The notes: generated from the sequence alone by a model not told the origin. Positions 43,130 through 55,204 are shown, counted from the first letter of the stretch. The stretch: DNA of 64,000 nucleotides from Escherichia phage A5-4 (OP744025); one strand, 5' to 3'. Made by a program: numbers and translations.

Positions 43130-43429
43130 TTAGTGACAATCTCCCCAGCTGTATCCACAAAGGTATTCTCCAGTTATCATCACTGGTGATTTCATCATCT
43201 TAGCTGCTTGTTCGACACAACGAACAACCATCTCTCCTACAGGGCAGTATGTAATAGTGAAGATACCATTTTCATCTGGATCACACTTAAACTTCCCTTC
43301 CTTCACGCAATGACCATCCAAGATCATTTTCTTAGCCAAGCAAGCTTCTACAAATTTCTTCGCGTCAGCTTCATTGTCAAAGGTCCAAGTCTTCTTAAAC
43401 TTGTGTGGCACTTCAAGCTGGTATTCATC
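43130..43429 (-). CDS. DNA polymerase (family A) 3' exon
   Basis: Begins DEYQLEVPHK (motif C, cf. Klenow HDELVFEVHKDD); ends ...GYSWGDCH (cf. T7 ...GPNWAICH). Confidence 0.65.
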   Translation of the reverse strand, partial: DEYQLEVPHKFKKTWTFDNEADAKKFVEACLAKKMILDGHCVKEGKFKCDPDENGIFTITYCPVGEMVVRCVEQAAKMMKSPVMITGEYLCGYSWGDCH

Positions 43430-44201
43430 CAAAAGTTTAACGAGGTCGTTACTCTCGCCCACATCATTACATGTTGCCATACGTTTTCACGTATGGATCG
43501 GACTATATCACCATCCTTTTCAGGATGCTCCCCATTTCGACGGCACTTGCTCGCCTACGCCTCTCGGCTAGTCTCTGAACGTTAGGACCATGTGTAGTCA
43601 CAAGAGATGTGTGTCCAGTTTTTACGGATTTTTATGGACCTTACCACGTTGTAAGGATAACCCATATCCCGAATCTGTGCACTTCCATAACCTTGCCCCA
43701 GGAAGTTGCAAATCTCTCTAACCTCTTCTTCGGTAACTATACTTCTGGCGTTATCAACCCCTGTTGCTGAACGACATTTATCAGCAAAGGTTTTCTTGAT
43801 ATTTCCACCACGAGTTGTCCATTGGAGGTTTGAATAGTGGTTATTCCTTTTGTCAGGCCACTTATGATCAACCTCCGGCAAACCTTCAGGGTTTGGTACA
43901 AAACACTCTGCCACCAAAACGTGAACAGCCTTTGTAGTCGTCCTTTTGTTGAGATACAGACTTACAATAAGATACCCACGTCCATTATCAACTGCCGCCA
44001 TTGGTTTCCCTCGACGACCTATAATGGTCCCGTCTTCATAAACCTTGTAACCGAAATAATCTTTATATTCCACATGATCCTCTTCGCTGCTGATTAACAT
44101 AGTCTCATACTAACTCACACTTGAATTAATATCAACCTTAGTCTTCCAGCAATTAAAGGAGTTTTCGATGTGAGTTACCTCACAAAGCCACAATGTTACT
44201 T
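43430..44201 (-). mobile_element. Group I intron in DNA polymerase gene
   Basis: Group I elements R (GTTCAGAGACTAG) and S (GATATAGTCC) flanking a P8-like hairpin; free-standing HNH ORF; exon ends in U, intron ends in G; splice restores YYHDEYQLEV. Confidence 0.7.
43582..44100 (-). CDS. Intron-encoded HNH endonuclease
   Basis: GYLIVSL motif plus HNH core LVAECFVPNP...VDHKWPDKRNN...NLQWTT. Confidence 0.75.
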   Translation of the reverse strand: MLISSEEDHVEYKDYFGYKVYEDGTIIGRRGKPMAAVDNGRGYLIVSLYLNKRTTTKAVHVLVAECFVPNPEGLPEVDHKWPDKRNNHYSNLQWTTRGGNIKKTFADKCRSATGVDNARSIVTEEEVREICNFLGQGYGSAQIRDMGYPYNVVRSIKIRKNWTHISCDYTWS

Positions 44202-46085
44202 ATGGTAATAGATAATACGTCTAACGCCTTCATCATACCAACCTTTCTTGACCAACTGCCAGTGCAGGAGGATACCCACCAAGTCAAACAGTGCAGCACC
44301 ACCATTCTGCTGATAAGCATTAAGCAATGAGTGTTTGGAACGAGTGTAGATCTTACGCCCATCCAGACCATAGATGAATCGCTTACCGTTAGCTTCCCAA
44401 AACTTCTCTAATGCTTCTTTACGACCTTTCAAGCCGATGTTGCTATCCCAGAATGCGTCGATTACTGCTTGGGCTTTCTCAAGACTGATACCAAGCATTG
44501 ATGCAATCTTCGCTGCCTGTGCCCCGTACATGATTCCGTATGTCACCCCTTTACCTTCGCCACGAGAAACCTTCTTCCCTGCTGCTTTGGTATATGCTTC
44601 TGCGTTTCGGGAGTGAGCATCTCCAGATTCCATGATACGAAGATAAGCACCGCCATCGAAATCATAAGCGCCCCATGCTGCGATCATGCCTTCCAAGTTT
44701 GAACCGTCGATACCTACCTGATATTTACCCTCAGAGGCTCTGAATAGTTCACGCATCTCTTTACCGAGAAGAACTTTCTCATCCGGCTTAGGTACGTTTG
44801 CTACGATCGTATGCTTACGACGACCTGTGTTAGTTATTCCACTATAACGGGCCGGAAGTTTACCGTCAACTCGTAGACGTGGATGGTTAAGCCATCCGGT
44901 ATCAACCTTCTCTTCTTTCAGCGGGTCAAGAACAGATCGTCGGTTACGTAAAGACAGCCATTTAACAATCTGTTTAGCCATTTCACCATCTACTCGCTCA
45001 AGGTTAGGGCAAAGACCTTGCTGATCCTTAAGTTGCGGGGATGTTGGCAATGCACGAGCTTTCTTACGGAAAAACTTGAACATCTTTTCTTTATCTGACC
45101 ACTGCTTAGGTGTGATCGCCAAGCTTTTCAGAATCAGATCACGATACTCCGTCTGATCCAAATCTTCAATGTATTGACGAACAATCAGATCAACCTCACT
45201 ATCAGGACGCTGTTTCTTGAACTGATCTTTAGTTGCATCCTTTGTACGCCAAATTGTTGGGACCCACCCTGCATCACGGATCAGGAACTTCTTAACGTCG
45301 TCCTGGTTACCAATACGCATCGGAATCATAATGTCCGGCATCTTTTGTTCTTTGATATCCATCAAAGCACGAGCCATATCTTCCGGCGGCAAAGGAACAA
45401 GTCCTTGCTGCTTAACGTTTTGTGCACGGATAAAATCACCCATTTTGGATTCATCCTCTACACCGTGCTCAACACAATACTTGATCGCGGCGGCAGTAAG
45501 AGATCCGTCAGCCTTAAACGGCTTACTTGGTGCACCTTTAAACTCCAAGGCTTCCCAATTGATATTATAACCTAACTTCTCTAACCATTTCCAACCTGTA
45601 CCGGAAAGAGATCCATCACCCTTGAAAGGTTTAGATGGGAATGTCGGTTGTGCTGATTTCGACATCTCTTTCTTCGGCAACTTAGGTTCAACCTCTAACT
45701 CAATGTCTGTCATCATCTTATCGATACGATCACGAAGCTTGAGTGCTTTTTCTTCATCAAATGAAACACCCTGAATTTCTTGCTCAATCATCAGGTAGTC
45801 AGTCAACATACCTCGACGCAGGGCATTCTTCCAGTTGATCATTTTATACTTCTTCTGATCTTTGTCTGTTTCATCCTTATACATGAAGCGTTTATCATCC
45901 GGCATAGATTCACAAGAGATCTCTTTCATCAGAGCATCCCATACCATTTCGTTGATAATTACGTCTTCAATAATACGATCGCAATACTTCCAAAGTGGAA
46001 GGCCACGCCAATCTTCGATCGCCACTTTCTGGTTAGCTACTCGCATACCCCAAGCTTCAAGCCCGTGTGGCCCTACAGGCTTCAT
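44202..46085 (-). CDS. DNA polymerase (family A) polymerase-domain exon
   Basis: HGLEAWG (cf. T7 HALEAWG), Exo III-like DRIIEDVII, motif A/B region, ...GVRRIIYYH at exon end; track ORF reads through to stop at 44196. Confidence 0.75.
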
Positions 46086-46531
46086 TTTACCGTGACGGGG
46101 TTCTTTACCATCTCAGGACAACCGCGAGGCAGAGGGCGATCTGGATACAGTGTACGGGACATTGAAAGTGTATCGAAGATGTTTACTTGTTTACCATTAA
46201 TCGTACCCATGCAACCAGGGTCTGCAAACATATCGTAAGTTGTTCCAAGCATCTTCTTAAACAACTGGAGGTCGTAGCCGAAGATGTTGTGGATAGCAAT
46301 TGCTTTAGGCTCTGTGACAAACCACTCGTTTAATTCCTCAATGGTCCGAATCTTAAAGTTTTTACCTTTAGATTGGATAAATTTAACAGCTTGATCGTAA
46401 CCTTCCCGCTGGGGATCAAGAAAGATGTTCCAGTTATCTTTTTTATACTCTTTAAACAAGACGCAGTGAATCAGATCAACCTCTGTCAATAGACCATTCG
46501 CTTCCGCATCTCCAATAAATAAGCCTTTCAT
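46082..46531 (-). CDS. DNA polymerase N-terminal 3'-5' exonuclease segment
   Basis: Exo I DAEANGL and Exo II HNIFGYD; ATG at 46531 after AAGGAG RBS preferred over track start 46555; 4-nt overlap with next ORF in a different frame. Confidence 0.65.
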   Translation of the reverse strand: MKGLFIGDAEANGLLTEVDLIHCVLFKEYKKDNWNIFLDPQREGYDQAVKFIQSKGKNFKIRTIEELNEWFVTEPKAIAIHNIFGYDLQLFKKMLGTTYDMFADPGCMGTINGKQVNIFDTLSMSRTLYPDRPLPRGCPEMVKNPVTVK

Positions 46532-46604
46532 TTTTTCTCCTTCTTCAAGCTCCAACTAGACTAAAACAAAGCCCAGCCGGAGGTATGACCCTTCGGCTAG
46601 GTTA

Positions 46605-46697
46605 TCAAAAGTGTCGGTATCCTTCATCAATAAAATAAAGCATCACTAACAGGGCGAATACCCCACATAAGAAGATCAAGCCCAATAAGGTGGGCAT
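46605..46697 (-). CDS. Possible 30-aa hydrophobic peptide
   Basis: ATG overlapping upstream stop (TGATG); single hydrophobic helix. Confidence 0.3.
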   Translation of the reverse strand: MPTLLGLIFLCGVFALLVMLYFIDEGYRHF

Positions 46698-46930
46698 CAG
46701 TCTTCTATTACCTCAAATTCACCACTAAAAGCTACGATAGTTTCACCGTAGCCCATGTTCAATCGGGCAGTTGTAGGTTTGCCATTCCTAGATAGATAGT
46801 ACACCCTCGCTTCGTAAATGTCACCAACTTTTACACCGTAAGCCTGTAGGTCTTTGTTATTGATATCTTTATTTTCAGCATTGATTATTCGAACACTGCT
46901 GATCTCTGAGTATACAGAATTATCTTTCAT
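46697..46930 (-). CDS. Hypothetical small protein
   Basis: Internal ATG coupled (TAATG) to upstream stop preferred over track start 46972. Confidence 0.5.
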   Translation of the reverse strand: MKDNSVYSEISSVRIINAENKDINNKDLQAYGVKVGDIYEARVYYLSRNGKPTTARLNMGYGETIVAFSGEFEVIED

Positions 46931-47214
46931 CAGTATTTTTCCTCTGGACGGAAAACTCCACGGCAAGCCCACATACTTGCTTCTTTGAGGCGATCTTTAG
47001 CCTTAGATAAGCAATCAGATGCAAAAAGCACGGAATCTAGATCCCCTTCGGGAATCGAAGAGTCATTAGCCAGTCGATTATATTCCTCAATAATCTCGTC
47101 TTCTAATGCTTTTAAAATAAGACCTAAACGAATTTCAGCATCTTTAATGGCATTCACCTTACCGATTTTTTCATCGGTGTGTGGTTTGTAGCCCTTAATG
47201 TCATCAATAGCCAT
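46930..47214 (-). CDS. Hypothetical acidic protein
   Basis: 94-aa ORF. Confidence 0.55.
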   Translation of the reverse strand: MAIDDIKGYKPHTDEKIGKVNAIKDAEIRLGLILKALEDEIIEEYNRLANDSSIPEGDLDSVLFASDCLSKAKDRLKEASMWACRGVFRPEEKY

Positions 47215-47696
47215 TACCAGTCCTCCTCTGTTTGTTCATACTCTGAAGGGGTGATGAAGTAATTCTGACCCCGCTTGCACTGGTTGAAAGTCCCAACATA
47301 CCAAGTACCGATATCCATGTTGATGAAAGTTTCTTCTTGAACAAAGATCAGATCAGCAAGATTATTGTCTGATCGTTGAGTCGCTAATAAAATATGCTCA
47401 AAATCTGCTAATGTCAGGTTATAACAGAAGCCGTCTTCGTCTTCCATGATTGCAACAACAGAACTACGCCCTTGGGTAAATTTACGAAACTGTAGACGTA
47501 AATGGCGATGCTCATGATCATTAGTCTTAACCTTTTTTCGATTTTCAAAGTATTCTTCGGAATAGTGTGGATGCTTTAATTTCAGTTTTTCAATTTCCTC
47601 AATAGAAAGAGCGTCCTTATCCCAACCAGTAAACCACTTACCATTATCATTAAATACCGCAGGGTATTTACGCTTACTTAAATCTTTAAACATCAT
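47214..47696 (-). CDS. Hypothetical protein
   Basis: Start at ATGATG after GGAGG RBS preferred over track start 47756. Confidence 0.55.
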   Translation of the reverse strand: MMFKDLSKRKYPAVFNDNGKWFTGWDKDALSIEEIEKLKLKHPHYSEEYFENRKKVKTNDHEHRHLRLQFRKFTQGRSSVVAIMEDEDGFCYNLTLADFEHILLATQRSDNNLADLIFVQEETFINMDIGTWYVGTFNQCKRGQNYFITPSEYEQTEEDW

Positions 47697-48018
47697 AGTC
47701 CTCCCCATAAATATCTTGAATTTTTGAAACCAGGTATTCAGGATCACTACCATCATACCACACTTCTACGAAAACCTTTTGGGAATCCTTAACGATCTTT
47801 GCCCCTACTCTTTCAATCCCCTTAAAGAAAGATTGTAAGATGTAATCATCCAGCAAGTTCACCCCGTAAGCATCGTGGAGAGATTTCTCATCGTGAACAT
47901 ACACAACCATCTTACCATCGTAGGTGAGTTGGATATGGGGATCATCTTCCCAAGCAATAGCCGGAGAATCCGGCTCAAGCTTTGCGATAACCCCAATCGT
48001 CAAGCAGTTGTCACTCAC
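47686..48018 (-). CDS. Hypothetical protein
   Basis: 110-aa ORF, coupled. Confidence 0.55.
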   Translation of the reverse strand: MSDNCLTIGVIAKLEPDSPAIAWEDDPHIQLTYDGKMVVYVHDEKSLHDAYGVNLLDDYILQSFFKGIERVGAKIVKDSQKVFVEVWYDGSDPEYLVSKIQDIYGEDYDV

Positions 48019-49232
48019 TCCTTACCTCCTGCGATACGTAACATTTGGATAGTTTTCTCCAGTTCTTTACGAGGTTTGGCAACCAGGCGACGTTCATGTC
48101 GCTTAAGGAAACCCTCTAAAAACTCCAACGGTTTAAATGATAACACTTCCTGAACTGATTCGTCAACAGCATATTCTTTCTGGACCATACGATAAACCGG
48201 ATTCTTTACAGTTACCGGAGTATAACCCTTCGTGATCGCCATCTGAGTAACAACACGTTTCTTACCGTCGGTCCACGAATCGTCAATAGGGAAAGAATCT
48301 TTTCCGTATTTTTCAGCGAACAACTTAACTGCTGTCTTTGTCAGGTCGTCCTGATCTTCTTGTGACCGACTTTGACCCCAATAATAGCCACCAGAGGTCT
48401 TAGCACGACGTTCTGAGAACAAAGCAAGGTCATCGTACTGCTCAAGAGCTAAACGCGCCAGAAGTTCGATATCGTCGCTTTCTGACAGTAGTCGGTTTGC
48501 TTCGTACTTAACCTCAAAAGTATTTGCACTGTCACGATCACGGTCAAGAGTAAAAGCCTCTGGCTTAAAATCATAATCGAATTTAAAATTACCTGGAACA
48601 CGAGTAACGAACAGTCCATTTACAAACAGGTTGCAGTCGCCACCTGTGATAGAGCCATCCTCTTCTTCATTTTGGTATTCGTCCGCAGCATTGTATAGCT
48701 TAGTATAAGCTTTACCGCGGTCATTCTGAATAACGACTGTACGTTCAGTAGTTGGTGCATAGTTATCCATAATTTCCGACATAGCGTACTGAGGGATGTT
48801 TTCAATGATAACGGTCACAGTATTTGAATCACGACCCGATAAGGCGTTTTCATGGATATCCACCGCCAAAATGTTCTGTTCGTATGTGGTATCGTAAACC
48901 ATATTTGGAATCCAAAGATCATTACCATTTTCGATAACGATATCTGCGCCTTCACGAACAAGCACCAGAAGACCCACTTTCAGACCTTCACCAAACTTAC
49001 CGATCTTACTGTCATCATCACGTTTGGTTGAAACACCCATCAAAAGGCCGGAAACAGGAACAACACCGCCACGAGAGATGATTGTGATCTTACCTTGATT
49101 ACTATCATCATTCCCAAAATAAATATTGAAATCTTCTGTATCGATAGCATTTTGCATGAGTTCACGAGCACCTTGCCACCATGACCAGTGGCTGACGTAA
49201 TTTTCAGTGATGCTCAATTTAATCTGTTTCAT
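48015..49232 (-). CDS. GHKL-family ATPase (Bergerat fold)
   Basis: N-box ELMQNAIDTED and G-box IGKFGEGLKVG. Confidence 0.6.
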   Translation of the reverse strand: MKQIKLSITENYVSHWSWWQGARELMQNAIDTEDFNIYFGNDDSNQGKITIISRGGVVPVSGLLMGVSTKRDDDSKIGKFGEGLKVGLLVLVREGADIVIENGNDLWIPNMVYDTTYEQNILAVDIHENALSGRDSNTVTVIIENIPQYAMSEIMDNYAPTTERTVVIQNDRGKAYTKLYNAADEYQNEEEDGSITGGDCNLFVNGLFVTRVPGNFKFDYDFKPEAFTLDRDRDSANTFEVKYEANRLLSESDDIELLARLALEQYDDLALFSERRAKTSGGYYWGQSRSQEDQDDLTKTAVKLFAEKYGKDSFPIDDSWTDGKKRVVTQMAITKGYTPVTVKNPVYRMVQKEYAVDESVQEVLSFKPLEFLEGFLKRHERRLVAKPRKELEKTIQMLRIAGGKE

Positions 49233-49244
49233 TTATTTGTCCTC

Positions 49245-49961
49245 TTATTTGTTGTATTGATAAATTGCTTCAGCTAAGCCCCGTGGGGTTAGTGACCGGA
49301 TCATCTTAGTTCTTGCTGACTTACCTCCTAACTTATTCTGCTGATCTGACCAACCAGGTGCAACAGGAACCGGAGAGGTTTTTGGAATTATAAACCCATT
49401 TCCTGTCCAAAGTCCAGTCTTTTTCGGATAAGCATCCCTTGGTTTAATGTATTGAGGAAAATAAGGGTTAACATCATTTACCGGAAGGTAACCGCCATAT
49501 TCCCAAGGGTTAAAATATACAGTAGGTTTTCGCCATTGTCCAGCTAAAACACTTACTGGGTTTTCAATCATATACGGACAATCGAAAACAAATTCAGCAA
49601 GCCAAGCTGCAATCTTCGCAGTTCTTACCGCCTTGACCTGGAAGAAAGGATCTTTTGCTTTCTTCGATGCAAAGTGACGAGAACCACTAACAGCCATATC
49701 GGTACATGGAGGATAGGCAAGGATCAGGTCCGGCGCAGGCAATCCTAAGTTCTCTACATTCTCCATCCATTCAATATCGATAAAGGCGTTAACGTAAGTG
49801 ATGTTGGGATGAATTTCCTTTACGCCTTCATAATCCCCGTGATCAGCATCGTCATAGTTGAAGCAGTAGCATTTGTGCCCTGCCTTCGCCCAGGGAAGAA
49901 CATCAATCCCTGAACCAGAAAAGAGACTCCAGATAATCTTTTTATTCATCGTAGCATCCAA
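49245..49961 (-). CDS. Minimal C5 cytosine methyltransferase-like protein
   Basis: Motif I LFSGSGI, motif IV YPPC, motif VI IENPV in canonical order and spacing; only 238 aa. Confidence 0.5.
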   Translation of the reverse strand: MDATMNKKIIWSLFSGSGIDVLPWAKAGHKCYCFNYDDADHGDYEGVKEIHPNITYVNAFIDIEWMENVENLGLPAPDLILAYPPCTDMAVSGSRHFASKKAKDPFFQVKAVRTAKIAAWLAEFVFDCPYMIENPVSVLAGQWRKPTVYFNPWEYGGYLPVNDVNPYFPQYIKPRDAYPKKTGLWTGNGFIIPKTSPVPVAPGWSDQQNKLGGKSARTKMIRSLTPRGLAEAIYQYNK

Positions 49962-50254
49962 ATAGTGGTTAATTTACAAATACACCAGAAAATCCCGATC
50001 AGTGTAGCCAGAGTAATAACACAAGTCAATACTATAGGTAAGAATATCGTCATAATCACTGCAAAGACTGAAATACCTATGCTTGCAATAAGATCCGGCA
50101 CGAAATAGTGAAATGGATCTCTTGCCTTTTTAATGTTGTCCCATGTTATTACTACGGAGCTAAGGACGAGCCAGAATAAAAAGTACAAAATGCAAGGAAA
50201 TAAAGTCATGTGTGACTTAACCATATCAAACCACATGTTGTAGAATTCAATCAT
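49946..50254 (-). CDS. Membrane protein
   Basis: 102 aa, three hydrophobic helices. Confidence 0.55.
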   Translation of the reverse strand: MIEFYNMWFDMVKSHMTLFPCILYFLFWLVLSSVVITWDNIKKARDPFHYFVPDLIASIGISVFAVIMTIFLPIVLTCVITLATLIGIFWCICKLTTIWMLR

Positions 50255-50574
50255 TCAGTTTTCCTCGGTACAGATGCAATAACAGCCTTTTCGACGAGAC
50301 ATACAATAAATCTCCCAATCCCTGCCAAAAGGAGAGCAAAGACTGTAAAAGGCAACCCATAAATAAGAACCAAAATCATCAATCCAAAACAAGCGGAAAA
50401 CAGGACTTCTGTGCCTAGCCACATTTTGGAGTAATTGATATAATTATGCCGCAATTTTAAAAACAGTCCAGCAATAGAGCCTACAGAAAATATACCAATC
50501 AACCAAGGTGCAGTTACAAATGAACGACTGAACCCTTCCCAAAAAACAAAAACATTAATGATTGCTTCGATCAT
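50251..50574 (-). CDS. Membrane protein
   Basis: 107 aa, about three hydrophobic helices. Confidence 0.55.
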   Translation of the reverse strand: MIEAIINVFVFWEGFSRSFVTAPWLIGIFSVGSIAGLFLKLRHNYINYSKMWLGTEVLFSACFGLMILVLIYGLPFTVFALLLAGIGRFIVCLVEKAVIASVPRKTE

Positions 50575-50825
50575 AAACCATACCTCGCTTCATATAAGAA
50601 TTCATCAAGATCTTTACTGTCGTCGGAACCTTCTACTGTCAACGGCATCAGGTGTTCTTTGAAATAATAGCAAAGATTGCCGGAACTCGTTTCCACTAAA
50701 CATGTGGTTTTGCAAACCATCTTAACTTTCACCGATAGTCCCGCATCTTCATGGCTGTGGACCATTGCAAGACAACCATCATAAAGCTTATCCTCGTAAG
50801 GTAAGCAAGGATCTGGATTTTTCAT
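50571..50825 (-). CDS. Hypothetical Cys-rich small protein
   Basis: 84-aa ORF. Confidence 0.55.
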   Translation of the reverse strand: MKNPDPCLPYEDKLYDGCLAMVHSHEDAGLSVKVKMVCKTTCLVETSSGNLCYYFKEHLMPLTVEGSDDSKDLDEFLYEARYGL

Positions 50826-51118
50826 CGTGAACTTTCCTCCTCCGCATGTTTACGCACCCATTCTACACGGGACGCGTTCAGGTGTTTGTTATCGTCGTAG
50901 TGATACGCTTTCCAACCTTCGTCGAAAGGGAACTCCCAGTTCAGTCCGGCATCGGTAAACTGTTGCTGCATCTCTTTGAGTAACTTATAGTCACACTCTG
51001 AAAACTCTTCCAGTGCGTTACACAGACCGCAGGTCCGATCAAACGTCTCGGAGTGTGGTGCACCAGCGTCAAGCCACTCAGCATAGGCTTTATAGAATGC
51101 TTTAAGTTGCTCGCTCAT
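50822..51118 (-). CDS. Hypothetical protein, paralog of 40320..40646
   Basis: Shared FYxxYxxWLDxGAP...GLC...DAGLN motif pattern. Confidence 0.6.
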   Translation of the reverse strand: MSEQLKAFYKAYAEWLDAGAPHSETFDRTCGLCNALEEFSECDYKLLKEMQQQFTDAGLNWEFPFDEGWKAYHYDDNKHLNASRVEWVRKHAEEESSR

Positions 51119-51514
51119 TTATTTATCCTCTGCATATGCAATCTTAGTCATGTAGTCAATACAATCATATTGAACATTGTGGCTATTAAAAACAGCCTTG
51201 TCTTTGTAAATAACTTGCCAATAATCAATGCTTTCAATTTCGGAAAGGTATGCAACACACTCCCCTTTTGGATTAATAAGTTCAACTCGATCAGTTTCTC
51301 GTAATTTCCAACCAGTAGGTAACTGAACAGCTTGTTCCTTAAAAATCACAATATCGTCACGGTGACCAGTTGCCCTTTTAAATGCCCGCAGTAATTCTTT
51401 GTATTCACGATATTTCACATAAAGGCCGTCCTCTGATTTTTCCATACGGGCTTCATTGATATTGCAATTACCATCCATATCTCCAACCAGGTCGTAACGA
51501 TATACAGGTTTCAT
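51119..51514 (-). CDS. Hypothetical protein
   Basis: 131-aa ORF. Confidence 0.55.
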   Translation of the reverse strand: MKPVYRYDLVGDMDGNCNINEARMEKSEDGLYVKYREYKELLRAFKRATGHRDDIVIFKEQAVQLPTGWKLRETDRVELINPKGECVAYLSEIESIDYWQVIYKDKAVFNSHNVQYDCIDYMTKIAYAEDK

Positions 51515-51723
51515 TTTTTAACTTTCTCCTTTTTCTCAGGTTTTACATCGCAAACTTTTTGTTGATAACTGATCGGTGTTACATAGCGCCACGTCTTTTT
51601 AAGGTTCTCAACGAGGATTCGCATTTGTTCCTCATCAGCACCCCAGCCTGCGGTATGTGCTATTTCATCAACACTCATCTGGCATTTAACGTACCATCTT
51701 GTAATTGTCTTCGATTGTATCAT
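51511..51723 (-). CDS. Hypothetical small protein
   Basis: 70-aa ORF. Confidence 0.5.
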   Translation of the reverse strand: MIQSKTITRWYVKCQMSVDEIAHTAGWGADEEQMRILVENLKKTWRYVTPISYQQKVCDVKPEKKEKVKK

Positions 51724-51750
51724 TATCGTTTCCTTGAGGTCAAGAGATTT

Positions 51751-52047
51751 TTATTTAATACCTAATTCTTTTGCACTGTAAATATCATTACCTTCATAGC
51801 CTTTGTAGTAGATCAGGATATCTTTGACAATCTCTCCCGTCGGTCCGCTCCGGCGAGTACGTGGTCGCTGTGCATTGACCAAATAAACTTCACCACGAGT
51901 ATTTATTTTTGTTGTACGATGGCCTTCGACAAAGGTCAAAGTTGTATATGCAGGAACCTTAACAAGAACTTCTACCTGGTCACCAGCAGTATTCTGTTGT
52001 TCATTTGCCATATCATCTTTAACAACAGTAGTCATAAGTTTGGTCAT
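51751..52047 (-). CDS. Hypothetical protein
   Basis: 98-aa ORF. Confidence 0.55.
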   Translation of the reverse strand: MTKLMTTVVKDDMANEQQNTAGDQVEVLVKVPAYTTLTFVEGHRTTKINTRGEVYLVNAQRPRTRRSGPTGEIVKDILIYYKGYEGNDIYSAKELGIK

Positions 52048-52049
52048 TT

Positions 52050-52313
52050 TTATTCTCCTTTGTTCAGTGTGGATACGAATTCGATATAAGATTCTGCATT
52101 TCGTTTATGATAAATCTTAGGGTAACTTTCGGTTACTTTGCTGTATTTGATGTATCGCTCAAACATACCGACGACACCACCAATGGAATGCACAACAACG
52201 CCCTCTTCACCAACAAAGGTAACAACCTCTACGAATGGAGTATTATCGTAAGAGCGATTTACAATCAGGTCGCCAACTTCAAATTCGATTTTATCATTTT
52301 GTGAGTAGTACAT
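52050..52313 (-). CDS. Hypothetical protein
   Basis: ATG at 52313 after AAGGAG RBS preferred over track start 52373. Confidence 0.55.
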   Translation of the reverse strand: MYYSQNDKIEFEVGDLIVNRSYDNTPFVEVVTFVGEEGVVVHSIGGVVGMFERYIKYSKVTESYPKIYHKRNAESYIEFVSTLNKGE

Positions 52314-52409
52314 TTGTTTTCTCCTTTCTGTTTGGTATGGGAGAAGTATAGGGAAGTTTGATGAGGGTGTCAATAGAAAAAACCGCCCGAAGGCGGTTTA
52401 TTTTTAGGA

Positions 52410-53519
52410 TCAGAAAGGTGCGTCGTCGTCCCAATCATCCGGCTCTGTGTCCGGCACATCAGGAATATCACCTGTGGATTCAACGATACTTTGTTGTTCC
52501 CACGTAGGTTCTTCTGAAGGTTGTTCCATTTCTTCCATAACCTTCTTGATCTCTTCCTCTTGCTCACGCAGGAAGTTATCATCCGGCTCAGGAATATCTT
52601 CCTCTTTAATATCTGAACGAGTGAGATCACTGTTTTGTTCAGACAGAGGTTGAATCTCTGCTGCTTTAGGCTTAAAGTCTGGAGAACGATGATCATCTTC
52701 TGGATGAGCGGCATACCACTCACGAAGAGTTTCATAAGGACTCTCTAAGAAGCCCTCTGGCGGTTCCAGATAATCACCCGTGTCAATGTCATAGAACACA
52801 GGGAATTTACCAGCACGACCGTGTTTACGGTCATCCAGAATAACAAAGTAAGAAGTGTTACGTTGTTTCATCGGGAGTTCTGGATCTTTGTTACGTTCAA
52901 TACCCCACATGTAATAAGTGTTACGCATCATTGCACGGCTACCAGCAAACTGCGCTGACTGGACTTGACCACCAAATTCATGAGGCTTACCAGATTCAGG
53001 CTTGTTAAGGTGACAGAAGCAATAATAGGTAAAGCCAAGCTCTTTTGCCAGTTTGGAGATCTCATCAGAGAATCGTTCCAGTTCCTGGTTAGCTTCGGAA
53101 GCACTCATACCTTGCACAAGACGAGTGATTGGGTCAATAAAGATATCTTCACAACCTTCTACGATCACTGCGTGACGGATAGCACCTTTCAGTTCATCCC
53201 ATACTGCACGACCATAGTTGTTATAATAGATAACACTATCACCAACTTCATCAGTAGCCTTGATCAGTTCTTCTTGCTTAAAGTAGCCACGTTGACCTTC
53301 AAATACTTCATTACCCCAAATGTCACGGAAAGTTCCATCTTCTTGAGGAATCATTACCTTTTCTGCGTTAACAAAGTCTTTATGATAACGCTTACCTGCG
53401 ATCTTTTTACAGGTAATTTCGTTCTCTTCTTCAAACTTAAACACCGCAGCCTTTGACTTCTCAATACCTGTAATGTGTTCTACCATCTGGTTAAGAAGTT
53501 CAGACTTACCCATTTTCAC
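52410..53519 (-). CDS. Primase-helicase (T7 gp4-like) 3' exon, helicase core
   Basis: Begins within Walker A (V)KMGKSELL; CFCHLNKPESGKPHEFGGQ matches T7 ICHLKNPDKGKAHEEGRP; acidic tail ...DDWDDDAPF. Confidence 0.75.
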   Translation of the reverse strand: MKMGKSELLNQMVEHITGIEKSKAAVFKFEEENEITCKKIAGKRYHKDFVNAEKVMIPQEDGTFRDIWGNEVFEGQRGYFKQEELIKATDEVGDSVIYYNNYGRAVWDELKGAIRHAVIVEGCEDIFIDPITRLVQGMSASEANQELERFSDEISKLAKELGFTYYCFCHLNKPESGKPHEFGGQVQSAQFAGSRAMMRNTYYMWGIERNKDPELPMKQRNTSYFVILDDRKHGRAGKFPVFYDIDTGDYLEPPEGFLESPYETLREWYAAHPEDDHRSPDFKPKAAEIQPLSEQNSDLTRSDIKEEDIPEPDDNFLREQEEEIKKVMEEMEQPSEEPTWEQQSIVESTGDIPDVPDTEPDDWDDDAPF

Positions 53520-54268
53520 CGTTATGTTCGACAGGGTTCGCTACTCCCTGCCCGTTCTCTTACGAACTGCTACATGTCCCCATGCAGACCAGACTATATC
53601 TTCAACCTGTTTCCAGGTGCTATGCACTTCGGACCGCTTGGCCCTACTCTACTCGATTCAAGAGTCTAGCTCTTGTCTTTCGATAGTCGTTGCTCCTTCC
53701 TCTCAACCGCTTTGTAATTTGTCTTACGGTATCTCTGTGTATCCCAAAATGCTCTGCAATTTCTTTTTGTTGAAGCGTGGTATTAATAACCATTTCGTAA
53801 ACCTGCTTCTCAAAATCATCAGCATATCTATTTGGATTTCTTCTACCGTTGGCCCAACCATGATCGACATTTTCTTTCGTGGTTGTCCATTCCAAATTAA
53901 CATCGTTGTTGTTTTGCCTGTCGCTATCTTTATGATTAACAACAGGAAGGTTATGAGGGTTATCAACGTAGTGTTCAGCCACCAATTGGTGAATAAATCT
54001 ACGTGTAACCTTACCATCTTTACTTAACGAAACTCTAAGATACCCTGAACTATTGGTATCCGGTTTGAGTTTTTTAAGCTTCCGGTAAACATCTCCCCTT
54101 CGGGTAATGATGTAATTTTCAAAACCTTTTATTCTTTTCATTTCCCCCCCTTGCAATAAACAAAGAGGTTGAGAGGCTTGGATCAGGATTACGTGTTCTA
54201 CGCTTCCCCTGAGTTCACATAGTATTTAGTCGAGGCATCTCTGCCAAGGCTGGCTAGACTTAATGTTT
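53520..54268 (-). mobile_element. Group I intron in primase-helicase gene
   Basis: Intervening block splits the P-loop; S element GATATAGTCT and P8-like hairpin CACCTG-GAAA-CAGGT downstream of HNH ORF; splice as GAG|VKMGKS fits U-before/G-last rule. Confidence 0.65.
53644..54156 (-). CDS. Intron-encoded HNH endonuclease
   Basis: GYLRVSL plus LVAEHYVDNP...VNHKDSDRQNN...NLEWTT; paralog of 43582..44100. Confidence 0.75.
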   Translation of the reverse strand: MQGGEMKRIKGFENYIITRRGDVYRKLKKLKPDTNSSGYLRVSLSKDGKVTRRFIHQLVAEHYVDNPHNLPVVNHKDSDRQNNNDVNLEWTTTKENVDHGWANGRRNPNRYADDFEKQVYEMVINTTLQQKEIAEHFGIHRDTVRQITKRLRGRSNDYRKTRARLLNRVE

Positions 54269-55204
54269 ACCAGCACCGATGAAGTAACCTTCACCTGGAC
54301 GACGACCCAAGGTAAGCTTGGTCATGGTGGGCCAAGGGAACTTCTTGCCGAGTTTAGGGATCTCATGTGCCTTTTCGCGGAACTGTGAATAAGTCGAGAA
54401 ACCATCCGGCACATATTCCTTTGGCTTCATTGCAGCCCAAAACAACTGATCAGAAAGTCCTTTGTTATACATGTCGCAAGGGTCCATATCTTCTGGAATG
54501 TCCACGACCTTCATTTGTGGAATTACAGAGTATACCGCTGCAACTGCATCTTTACCTTTCATGATCCCTTTGGCCTTCTCTGCTTCTGTCGCACGGTCAG
54601 CATCGAAAGCTACGATAATCTCTTCAAACTTACTCAGAAGCTTATAGTTATTCTTCTGTGATAAGTTTTGCACGGCATTGGATGTACCGTTAGAGATAGA
54701 TACAACTGTGAAGTTTGGTTTACGAGTGGAACCATCCTTCGGTTTGTACTTCTCTGTCAATACCTGCCACAAGATTGCAGCATCATATTCACCTTCAGTG
54801 ATAAAGATCATACGTTTGGAAGACTTATTTGCACCTTCCAGCCCAAACATATCACAAGCCACAGATTGGAAACCAATAGTTGTAAAGTGACCTTTCTGTT
54901 GCTTAGGGATCGTAAGATCACGCTTCTTAAAACCTACAACCTTACCTTCTAATGTATACGGGAAATAATGTGCTTCTGGTGTCATACCGTCTTTAGCTGA
55001 CAGTTTGGTACGAATACCAAATCGTTTAGCTGTCTTTTCGTCGATACCGCGCTCAGGGATACTTTTGCACGGGTAAGTCAATACGTCTTCAACTGTTTCT
55101 TCTACACGAGACACACCACCACCATAATTACGTGCTACTGAAGCTTTAGGATTTTTATGTCCAAACTTATAACCGCCAAACAAACTTTCGCCAATAGTGC
55201 TCAT
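54269..55204 (-). CDS. Primase-helicase (T7 gp4-like) 5' exon, TOPRIM primase part
   Basis: TOPRIM IFITEGEYDAAIL and VAFDAD; ends ...GEGYFIGAG at start of Walker A; no zinc-ribbon Cys motifs. Confidence 0.7.

Follow-up and report, generated by a model that had tools for sequence, protein, structure and literature searches.

Escherichia phage A5-4 (OP744025) carries two group I introns with endonuclease genes, one in its family A DNA polymerase gene and one in its primase-helicase gene. We analysed 64,000 nt of this phage (the window; positions are counted from its first letter). We conclude that the two introns were very probably acquired independently, from separate site-specific intron/endonuclease lineages that circulate among phages, and not by duplication or retargeting inside this phage. 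We will term the endonuclease of the polymerase intron HNH1 and that of the helicase intron HNH2. Judged from their sequences, HNH1 and HNH2 are distant homologues, with a similarity that is the background of the whole I-HmuI-like family. The records closest to the window (~95-97% identity) are the Vequintavirinae-like E. coli myophages A73, W70, LTH01, A7_1, and UPEC06, and the source of the window is itself a Vequintavirinae-like E. coli myophage. The minus strand encodes everything from 40 to 58 kb, including the two introns and their open reading frames (ORFs):

43430..44201, minus strand: polymerase group I intron, 772 nt, IA2-type (RF00028 match; exactly absent in UPEC06 and A7_1; folding; compensatory changes in P8, P9.1, and P9.2)
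43582..44100, minus strand: HNH1, I-HmuI-like HNH homing endonuclease, 172 aa (BLASTP match to HNH2; sub-threshold match to Pfam HNH_3; 1U3E match)
53520..54268, minus strand: helicase group I intron, 749 nt, IA2-type (partial RF00028 match; ORF-less version in W70; exactly absent in A73; folding)
53644..54156, minus strand: HNH2, I-HmuI-like HNH homing endonuclease with a C-terminal helix-turn-helix, 170 aa (1U3E match; relatives of 164-165 aa)

HNH1 and HNH2 are not each other's nearest relatives: for each of them, endonucleases from its own site score higher. In phage genomes (tblastn), full-length relatives of HNH1 were found at 74% in Cronobacter phages PBES02 and CR9 and at 69% in the SSE121 group. 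More distant relatives occur in rV5-like phages, Aeromonas phage phiA009, Pseudaeromonas phage KLEP7, and Pseudomonas phage SPA01 (48-55%) and in FV3 (49%). At all of the loci that were inspected, polymerase exon 1 precedes the gene and an exon 2 of ~350 nt follows it, and the introns are inserted at the identical TACCAT|GAYGA site. In an all-against-all BLASTP matrix, HNH1 scores 123-273 bits against the endonucleases of this same polymerase site (from Certrevirus, Seunavirus, Vequintavirus, Aeromonas, and Pseudomonas phages), and these enzymes score 123-273 bits among themselves. The relatives of HNH2 are a different set: 85% in UPEC06, 70-77% in metagenomic proteins, 72% in a metagenomic phage contig (L017), and 44% in Klebsiella phage Asterion. 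Those whose context we examined (Asterion and the L017 contig) lie inside split primase-helicase genes. HNH2 scores 100 bits against the Asterion protein (BLASTP) and 246-314 bits against the proteins P0002-P0006 (HMMER). In the same matrix, HNH1 versus HNH2 scores 66 bits, which is inside the family background of 47-106 bits. HNH2 is as close to I-HmuI of Bacillus phage SPO1 as it is to HNH1 (63.5 bits, 37% identity over 107 aa).

Trees gave the same picture. (A homologous-protein search with a word prefilter returned few matches, 15 and 33, and could not rank HNH1 against HNH2; the ranking given here comes from the local score matrix and the bootstraps.) In neighbor-joining trees with 200 bootstraps, the HNH2 clade was recovered in 179-192 replicates and the polymerase-site clade in 102-122, and an exclusive grouping of HNH1 with HNH2 appeared in 0 or 1. 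HNH2 groups with I-HmuI, the Asterion protein, and other NUMOD4+HNH_3 proteins, apart from the polymerase clade.

The intron RNAs were compared separately from the proteins, as percent identity of their 5' and 3' cores:

Window polymerase versus window helicase intron: 5' core 48%, 3' core 62%
Shuffled controls (mean ± sd): 5' core 50.8 ± 2.2%, 3' core 55.7 ± 1.8%
Window polymerase intron versus PBES02 or SSE121: 5' core 85-87%, 3' core 93-95%
Window helicase intron versus Roth32, JSF38, Asterion, kvi, CB7 nrdA, and SSE121 polymerase site a: 5' core 54-71%, 3' core 70-76%
Window helicase intron versus L017: 5' core 65%, 3' core 81%

The 5' cores of the window's two introns are thus no more alike than shuffled sequences, and their 3' cores share only generic catalytic elements. 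The values for this pair are among the lowest in each row of the matrix, and each of the two introns has relatives at 70-95%. At this polymerase site, the intron of CB7 and that of the window agree at 94.7% over a stretch of 187 nt that takes in the 3' core and the first part of exon 2. At its 3' end, the helicase intron is 84-94% identical in nucleotide sequence to introns that interrupt other genes, in phages unrelated to this one, and its type of 3' core is also found in nrdA introns, in T4-like polymerase introns, and in the SSE121 intron at polymerase site a, all of which carry other homing endonuclease genes (HEGs). Vibrio phage JSF38 has this type of 3' core as well, in a gene annotated only as hypothetical.

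The two introns also occur independently of each other in close relatives of the phage. Of the two, A73 and LTH01 have the polymerase intron alone, and A7_1 and UPEC06 the helicase intron alone; in W70, the polymerase intron is accompanied by a helicase intron that lacks an ORF. Both introns with intact ORFs, as in the window, are found in none of the five ~96%-identical phages, and the combinations differ, so the two introns do not co-occur as a pair. An earlier note on this DNA had proposed that one intron-plus-endonuclease lineage spread to two essential replication genes of the same phage. The endonucleases are indeed homologous and lie in the same loop of introns of the same subtype; the spread inside the phage did not hold up, given the closer own-site relatives, the 0-1 of 200 bootstraps, and the independent presence of the introns. 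The note also suggested looking in related phages for intron-less alleles, and these exist for both genes (the polymerase genes of UPEC06 and A7_1 and the helicase gene of A73), which defines the homing sites.

The ORF-less helicase intron of W70 is 283 nt long (L005:2562-2841). Relative to the window, 54173..53702 is replaced by ~6 nt, and the segments that are retained are ~97% identical in alignment. The HEG and P6a are cleanly lost, and P6 closes as CCUU-GAAA-AAGG, with a GAAA tetraloop, as one would picture the stage of the homing cycle at which the HEG is lost. Farther downstream, the helicase gene of W70 has another HNH-containing group I intron (AMMR|NTYYMW), and the window has none at the corresponding site, near 52920.

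Next to both insertion sites, we found patches of silent differences:

44205..44226, minus strand: polymerase upstream patch (-4 to -25), 7 purely synonymous differences between intron-plus and intron-minus alleles
54269..54377, minus strand: helicase upstream patch (-1 to -109), 14 synonymous differences between the window and intron-minus A73, including U to G at -1
53503..53519, minus strand: helicase downstream patch (+3 to +17), 4 synonymous differences between the window and intron-minus A73

Upstream of the polymerase patch, there are 0-1 differences per 25 nt, and A73, which has this intron, is identical to the window across the tract. For the helicase gene, the intron-minus allele of A73 has 18 silent differences from -109 to +17 and is almost identical elsewhere, and intron-plus A7_1 is identical to the window over all 300 nt upstream. 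Such clusters beside the sites are seen only when intron-plus alleles are compared with intron-minus alleles. At both sites, the patches would fit co-conversion during independent homing.

What the two elements do have in common must be weighed against this. BLASTP aligns HNH1 with HNH2 at 65.9 bits (39% identity over 107 aa, E = 8e-19), and the motifs GYL(I/R)VSL, H-LVAE-(F/Y)V-NP--LP-V(D/N)HK, and NL(Q/E)WTT, which the earlier note had picked out along with the similar lengths, are in register within the alignment. The C-terminal ~60 residues do not align in the pairwise comparison. However, a profile-profile comparison of the HNH1 family with the HNH2 family matched 149 columns, including the C-terminal helix-turn-helix (100% probability, E = 1.7e-40), so the homology runs the full length of both proteins, which have the architecture of I-HmuI in common. 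The structure of I-HmuI (PDB 1U3E) matches HNH2 over residues 2-106 (E = 1.4e-14) and HNH1 with E = 3.5e-5. The catalytic His/Asn positions (D/N-H-K ... N-N ... N-L ... N) are invariant in the alignments of both families, and most close relatives of either protein carry a precomputed PF13392 assignment. In a Pfam scan, HNH2 had helix-turn-helix matches, and neither protein had a match to NUMOD4. The predicted architecture of both is an N-terminal DNA-binding region, the H-N-N catalytic motif, and a C-terminal helix-turn-helix. A tblastn search of the whole window found no third HNH copy.

The introns are also built alike. The mark of subgroup IA2 is a pair of additional helices between P7 and P3', namely P7.1 and P7.2 with G-U-A as their joint (PMC3428280). 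Folding recovered these hairpins in the polymerase intron as GCCGAGAGGC-GUA-GGCGAGCAAGUGCC and in the helicase intron, where P7.1 is extended, as ...UCGA-GUAGAGUA-GGGCCAAGCGGUCC. The elements of the polymerase intron are in the order P1, P2, P3-P6, the ORF in L6, P7, P7.1-GUA-P7.2, P8, P9, P9.1, and P9.2; those of the helicase intron are P1, P2, P3-P6/P6a, the ORF in L6a, P7, extended P7.1, GUA, P7.2, P8, P9, P9.1, and P9.2. The 3' halves fold alike (P7.1, GUA, P7.2, P8, J8/7-P7', P9, P9.1, and P9.2), and P8, P9.1, and P9.2 show compensatory changes among 13 related introns. (RNAalifold on the 3' cores gave some implausible long-range pairs, and we used only these three helices.)

Both ORFs are in the P6/P6a loop, and the equivalent positions described in the earlier note, ~100 nt from the 5' splice site, are confirmed: the distance is 101 nt to ATG 44100 and 112 nt to TTG 54156. 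(With the likelier starts discussed below, it is 128 nt and 127 nt.) The ends of the ORFs, which the note placed at the R/P7 region, need correction. The stop of HNH1 is inside P6', immediately ahead of J6/7-P7. The HNH2 ORF extends ~50 nt beyond the equivalent point: it crosses P6', P7, and P7.1, and its stop is in the GUAGAGUAG linker that precedes P7.2, so that its last ~17 codons overlap P6a', P6', P7, and P7.1. As what would refute its proposal, the note had named a similarity limited to the generic HNH core, with unrelated intron cores, and the result agrees with this only by half. The profiles extend past the HNH core and the IA2 architecture is common, but the cores are not each other's relatives.

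One alternative is that both lineages descend from a single IA2 intron with an I-HmuI-like HEG that was retargeted long ago in another phage, so that HNH1 and HNH2 are deep paralogs in the phage gene pool. The full-length profile homology and the shared IA2 architecture with the ORF in L6 agree with this, and retargeting itself is documented for the helicase intron, which has moved by 12 nt with a new P1/P2 (see below). Nevertheless, we consider it unlikely. HEG and core are separable modules, as the CB7 intron illustrates, so the co-ancestry of an intron+HEG unit is untraceable. Also, HNH2 groups with I-HmuI, Asterion, and the NUMOD4+HNH_3 proteins instead of the polymerase clade, and the 3' core type of the helicase intron accompanies other HEGs in nrdA, T4-like polymerase, and SSE121 site a introns.

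A second alternative is that one of the replication genes received its intron-plus-endonuclease unit from the other, by duplication or ectopic transposition of a single unit already resident in this phage lineage, which would make the endonucleases paralogs within this genome. The significant pairwise similarity with motifs at the same spacing, the same loop position and similar ORF length, and the same IA2 architecture (including P7.1/P7.2 and P9.1/P9.2) are what it would lead one to expect, and HEG modules can move between cores in this subfamily (the CB7/SSE121 chimera). It seems very improbable because each protein has many closer relatives elsewhere, because HNH2 is as close to I-HmuI of SPO1 as to HNH1, because the exclusive grouping is nearly absent from the bootstraps and the 5' cores are at shuffle level, and because the introns occur independently in ~96%-identical phages. 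Furthermore, the nucleotide similarity of the ORFs is no more than 39% protein identity implies.

Several points weigh against independent acquisition of two mobile introns, or against parts of it. First, the bootstrap of the polymerase-site clade is only 51-61%, and these are simple neighbor-joining trees on about 100-160 columns. Second, the two families are homologous in full length and the introns agree in IA2 architecture and in the position of the ORF; the units might go back to one ancient ancestor. Third, the silent patches may partly stem from selection for P1 pairing or for escape from or resistance to cleavage. Fourth, the Pfam HNH_3 (PF13392) matches of the two proteins, at 23.9 and 21.4 bits (E = 3e-5 and 2e-4), fall short of the gathering cut-off of 24.8. 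Fifth, splicing, nicking, and homing in this phage are predictions from sequence and from known systems. Finally, polymerase exon 1 has a 1-nt deletion near 46091 (CACGG, versus CACAGG in A73, A7_1, and UPEC06), which breaks its frame into the ORFs 46082..46555 and 44196..46085. The deletion is an error of sequencing or assembly, or else a real frameshift, in which case the polymerase gene here is nonfunctional.

The exons that flank the introns are as follows:

44202..46555, minus strand: DNA polymerase (family A) exon 1, ending ...TAT TAC CAT (YYH, motif C) (Pfam DNA_pol_A; the alignment to the intron-less alleles of UPEC06 and A7_1 stops at 44202)
43130..43429, minus strand: DNA polymerase exon 2, beginning GAT GAA (DE, motif C) (alignment to the intron-less alleles)
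54269..55204, minus strand: primase-helicase exon 1 (Toprim primase part), ending GGT GCT GGT (GAG) (Pfam Toprim; alignment to the intron-less allele of A73)
52410..53519, minus strand: primase-helicase exon 2 (DnaB-like helicase), beginning GTG AAA ATG GGT AAG TCT (VKMGKS, Walker A) (Pfam DnaB_C/AAA_25)

The Pfam matches are in ORFs 44196..46085 (DNA_pol_A), 54260..55204 (Toprim), and 52410..53519 (DnaB_C/AAA_25). The intron-less polymerase genes of UPEC06 and A7_1 align contiguously over 46531..44202 and then 43429..43161 of the window, joining 44202 to 43429, and so the polymerase intron is 43430..44201. It interrupts motif C at YYH|DE. The intron-less allele of A73 places the helicase intron in the P-loop (Walker A) of the gp4-like primase-helicase, at GAG|VKMGKS. 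Removing the introns in silico gives ...RRIIYYH|DEYQLEV and ...YFIGAG|VKMGKSELL, and the proteins are identical to those of the intron-less alleles (UPEC06 and A7_1 for the polymerase, A73 for the helicase). Both 5' exons end in a U opposite a G of a plausible P1 (CCAU|AA with UUGUGG for the polymerase; GCUGGU with GCCAGC for the helicase), and the last base of both introns is G (at 43430 and 53520). Reading through from exon 1 meets a stop codon 2-3 codons inside each intron, and therefore splicing is needed for gene function.

At its gathering thresholds, Rfam gave no match in the window, an effect of the ORF inserts, which lower the score. We reran it in E-value mode and with the natural ORF-less intron of W70 as a query. 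RF00028 matches the polymerase intron at 43478..44211 (42.9 bits, E = 2.5e-8), which is below the gathering score of 50 because of a 497-nt ORF insert in P6. The match to the helicase intron covers only its 3' part (53570..53760, 24.6 bits), and the W70 intron scores above gathering (70.4 bits, E = 5.5e-17). The matches end 49-50 nt short of the real intron ends at 43430 and 53520 because of P9.1 and P9.2. The scan of the whole window found no introns beyond these two. Both elements are bona fide mobile group IA2 introns, and we predict that they splice. The least probable alternative, that free-standing HNH genes split the host genes into separately translated fragments without splicing (compare nrdA/mobE of Aeromonas phage Aeh1), is in keeping with the annotation of the fragments as separate CDSs, with the in-frame ATG 43480 before polymerase exon 2, and with the GTG that starts helicase exon 2, but it is hardly credible given the group I covariance-model matches, the canonical U.G and terminal-G boundaries, the location of the interruptions within the HDE catalytic motif and the P-loop, which would leave separate fragments with little chance of working, and the demonstrated splicing of the CB7 polymerase intron, which has a near-identical core at the same site (PMC7344957).

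By analogy with I-HmuI, I-BasI, and I-PfoP3I, in a mixed infection the enzyme would nick or cut, close to the insertion site, an allele of a related phage that lacks the intron. Recombination-dependent repair would then copy the intron and a short stretch of flanking exon into that allele, and self-splicing of the RNA would restore the mRNA, so that the host gene keeps functioning.

The start codons of the endonucleases deserve comment. The real start of HNH1 is probably GTG 44073 (163 aa), behind a GAGGA Shine-Dalgarno sequence. ATG 44100 falls in conserved P5'/P4' RNA sequence. GTG 44073 is the likelier start because a stop codon follows the MLISS stretch in FV3 and phiA009 and because HNH1 orthologues are annotated as 163 aa. 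Similarly, the start of HNH2 is probably ATG 54141 (165 aa), behind a run of G. A 184-aa antisense ORF (53473..54027, plus strand) overlaps HNH2 and has a counterpart in A7_1 (L006:1726-2229). In A7_1, it is this ORF, on the wrong strand, that is annotated as a CDS, and the HNH gene itself is unannotated.

In the polymerase gene, an ATG at 43480, in the P9/P9.1 region of the intron, is in frame with exon 2 (the listed ORF is 43130..43480). This accounts for a 351-nt "DNA polymerase" CDS with 17 intron-encoded codons, which is called likewise in A73, PBES02, and CB7 and is probably an annotation artefact. Polymerase exon 1 also contains, in the codons ...GKGVTYG|IMYGAQ..., an empty site for the second polymerase intron of SSE121 and CB7; that intron has a 3' core of the helicase-intron type.

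Some of these introns appear to be mosaics. The YYH|DE intron of CB7 (L018:1050-1850) is chimeric: it has window-type 5' P1-P4 (85%) and a window-type 3' core (94.7%). The start of its P5/L6 is 91% identical to an SSE121 polymerase intron at another site (L008:1-760), and its HEG, CB7_50, is 55% identical to the ORF of that intron. This points to the swapping of HEG cassettes between cores. The metagenomic phage contig L017 (2903-3627) has the same helicase intron/HEG lineage as the window, and its P3-P6 region is close to identical. Its intron nevertheless lies 12 nt farther downstream within the orthologous P-loop, at GAGVKMG|KSE (GAG|VKMGKSE in the window), and has a completely different P1/P2. 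The Asterion intron is at KMG|KS, like that of L017, and the Roth32 intron is at GV|GKT, which makes at least three insertion points within 12 nt.

Together, the helicase-lineage sites 12 nt apart with different P1/P2 and the CB7 core with the HEG module of another site lead us to a tentative idea, which we would sooner doubt than accept at present: the mobile introns of this phage group may consist of three independently shuffling modules, namely the guide (P1/P2), the core of the ribozyme, and the HEG cassette (with P5/L6). In that case, new insertion points could be seeded by related HNH enzymes that target one conserved motif. A phage with both introns, such as this one, would then be a double-armed competitor, converting or excluding the alleles of co-infecting relatives.

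The elements are of a known kind, with ordinary mobile-intron biology, and they reveal no new mechanism. Their interest is mainly in the presence/absence series and in the possible shuffling of modules. Near-identical phages with no intron, with one, with both, or with an ORF-less version form a natural series, with defined empty sites and silent patches beside them, and are a convenient system for studying homing, co-conversion, and HEG loss in coliphages outside of the T-even group. As for annotation, the polymerase and the primase-helicase should each be joined across the intron, and the endonucleases are labelled hypothetical proteins in A73, A7_1, and similar relatives.

Among known systems, I-HmuI and I-BasI have their genes in DNA polymerase introns of the Bacillus phages SPO1 and Bastille (1U3E). 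They make a nick in one strand, 3 nt away from the insertion site, and set off homing through gene conversion (PMC3017599). HNH1 and HNH2 resemble them in size (~165-175 aa), in domain order, and in their location, a group I intron within a replication gene of a phage. Their hosts, target genes, and target sites are different, and in the N-terminal ~100 residues the identity is only 31-37%.

Polymerase genes of T7-like phages have been described to contain IA2 introns that carry an HNH ORF in P6a (PhiI, W31, and cyanophage Pf-WMP3, whose I-PfoP3I is a nicking HNH enzyme; PMC3428280). As in the window, P7.1 and P7.2 are joined by GUA, and the target is a family A polymerase. ORFs of the I-PfoP3I type begin in P6a and overlap P6, P7, and P7.1, as the ORF of the helicase intron does. 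The insertion sites differ from those in the window.

The helicase introns of Asterion, Roth32 (also from a Klebsiella phage), and L017 have the same type of 3' core as the window, at 66-81% identity, and the same P-loop target in the primase-helicase. They differ in that they are inserted 4-12 nt away and have other P1/P2 guide regions, and the Roth32 intron has no ORF. A literature search found no paper on the Walker-A helicase intron of these phages; GenBank has split primase-helicase genes with an annotated HNH gene.

Finally, in the DNA polymerase of Pectobacterium phage CB7 (a Certrevirus), reverse transcription PCR and sequencing showed that both HNH-containing introns splice (PMC7344957). 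The polymerase introns of CB7 (with CB7_50), PBES02, CR9, SSE121, and the rV5-like phages are at the same TACCAT|GAYGA site as the window's, and the 3' core-spanning stretch of CB7, PBES02, and SSE121 is 93-95% identical to it. CB7 departs from the window in its HEG (CB7_50), which is another and shorter one, and in the P5/L6 module that the same core holds, and CB7 and SSE121 have the second polymerase intron described above.

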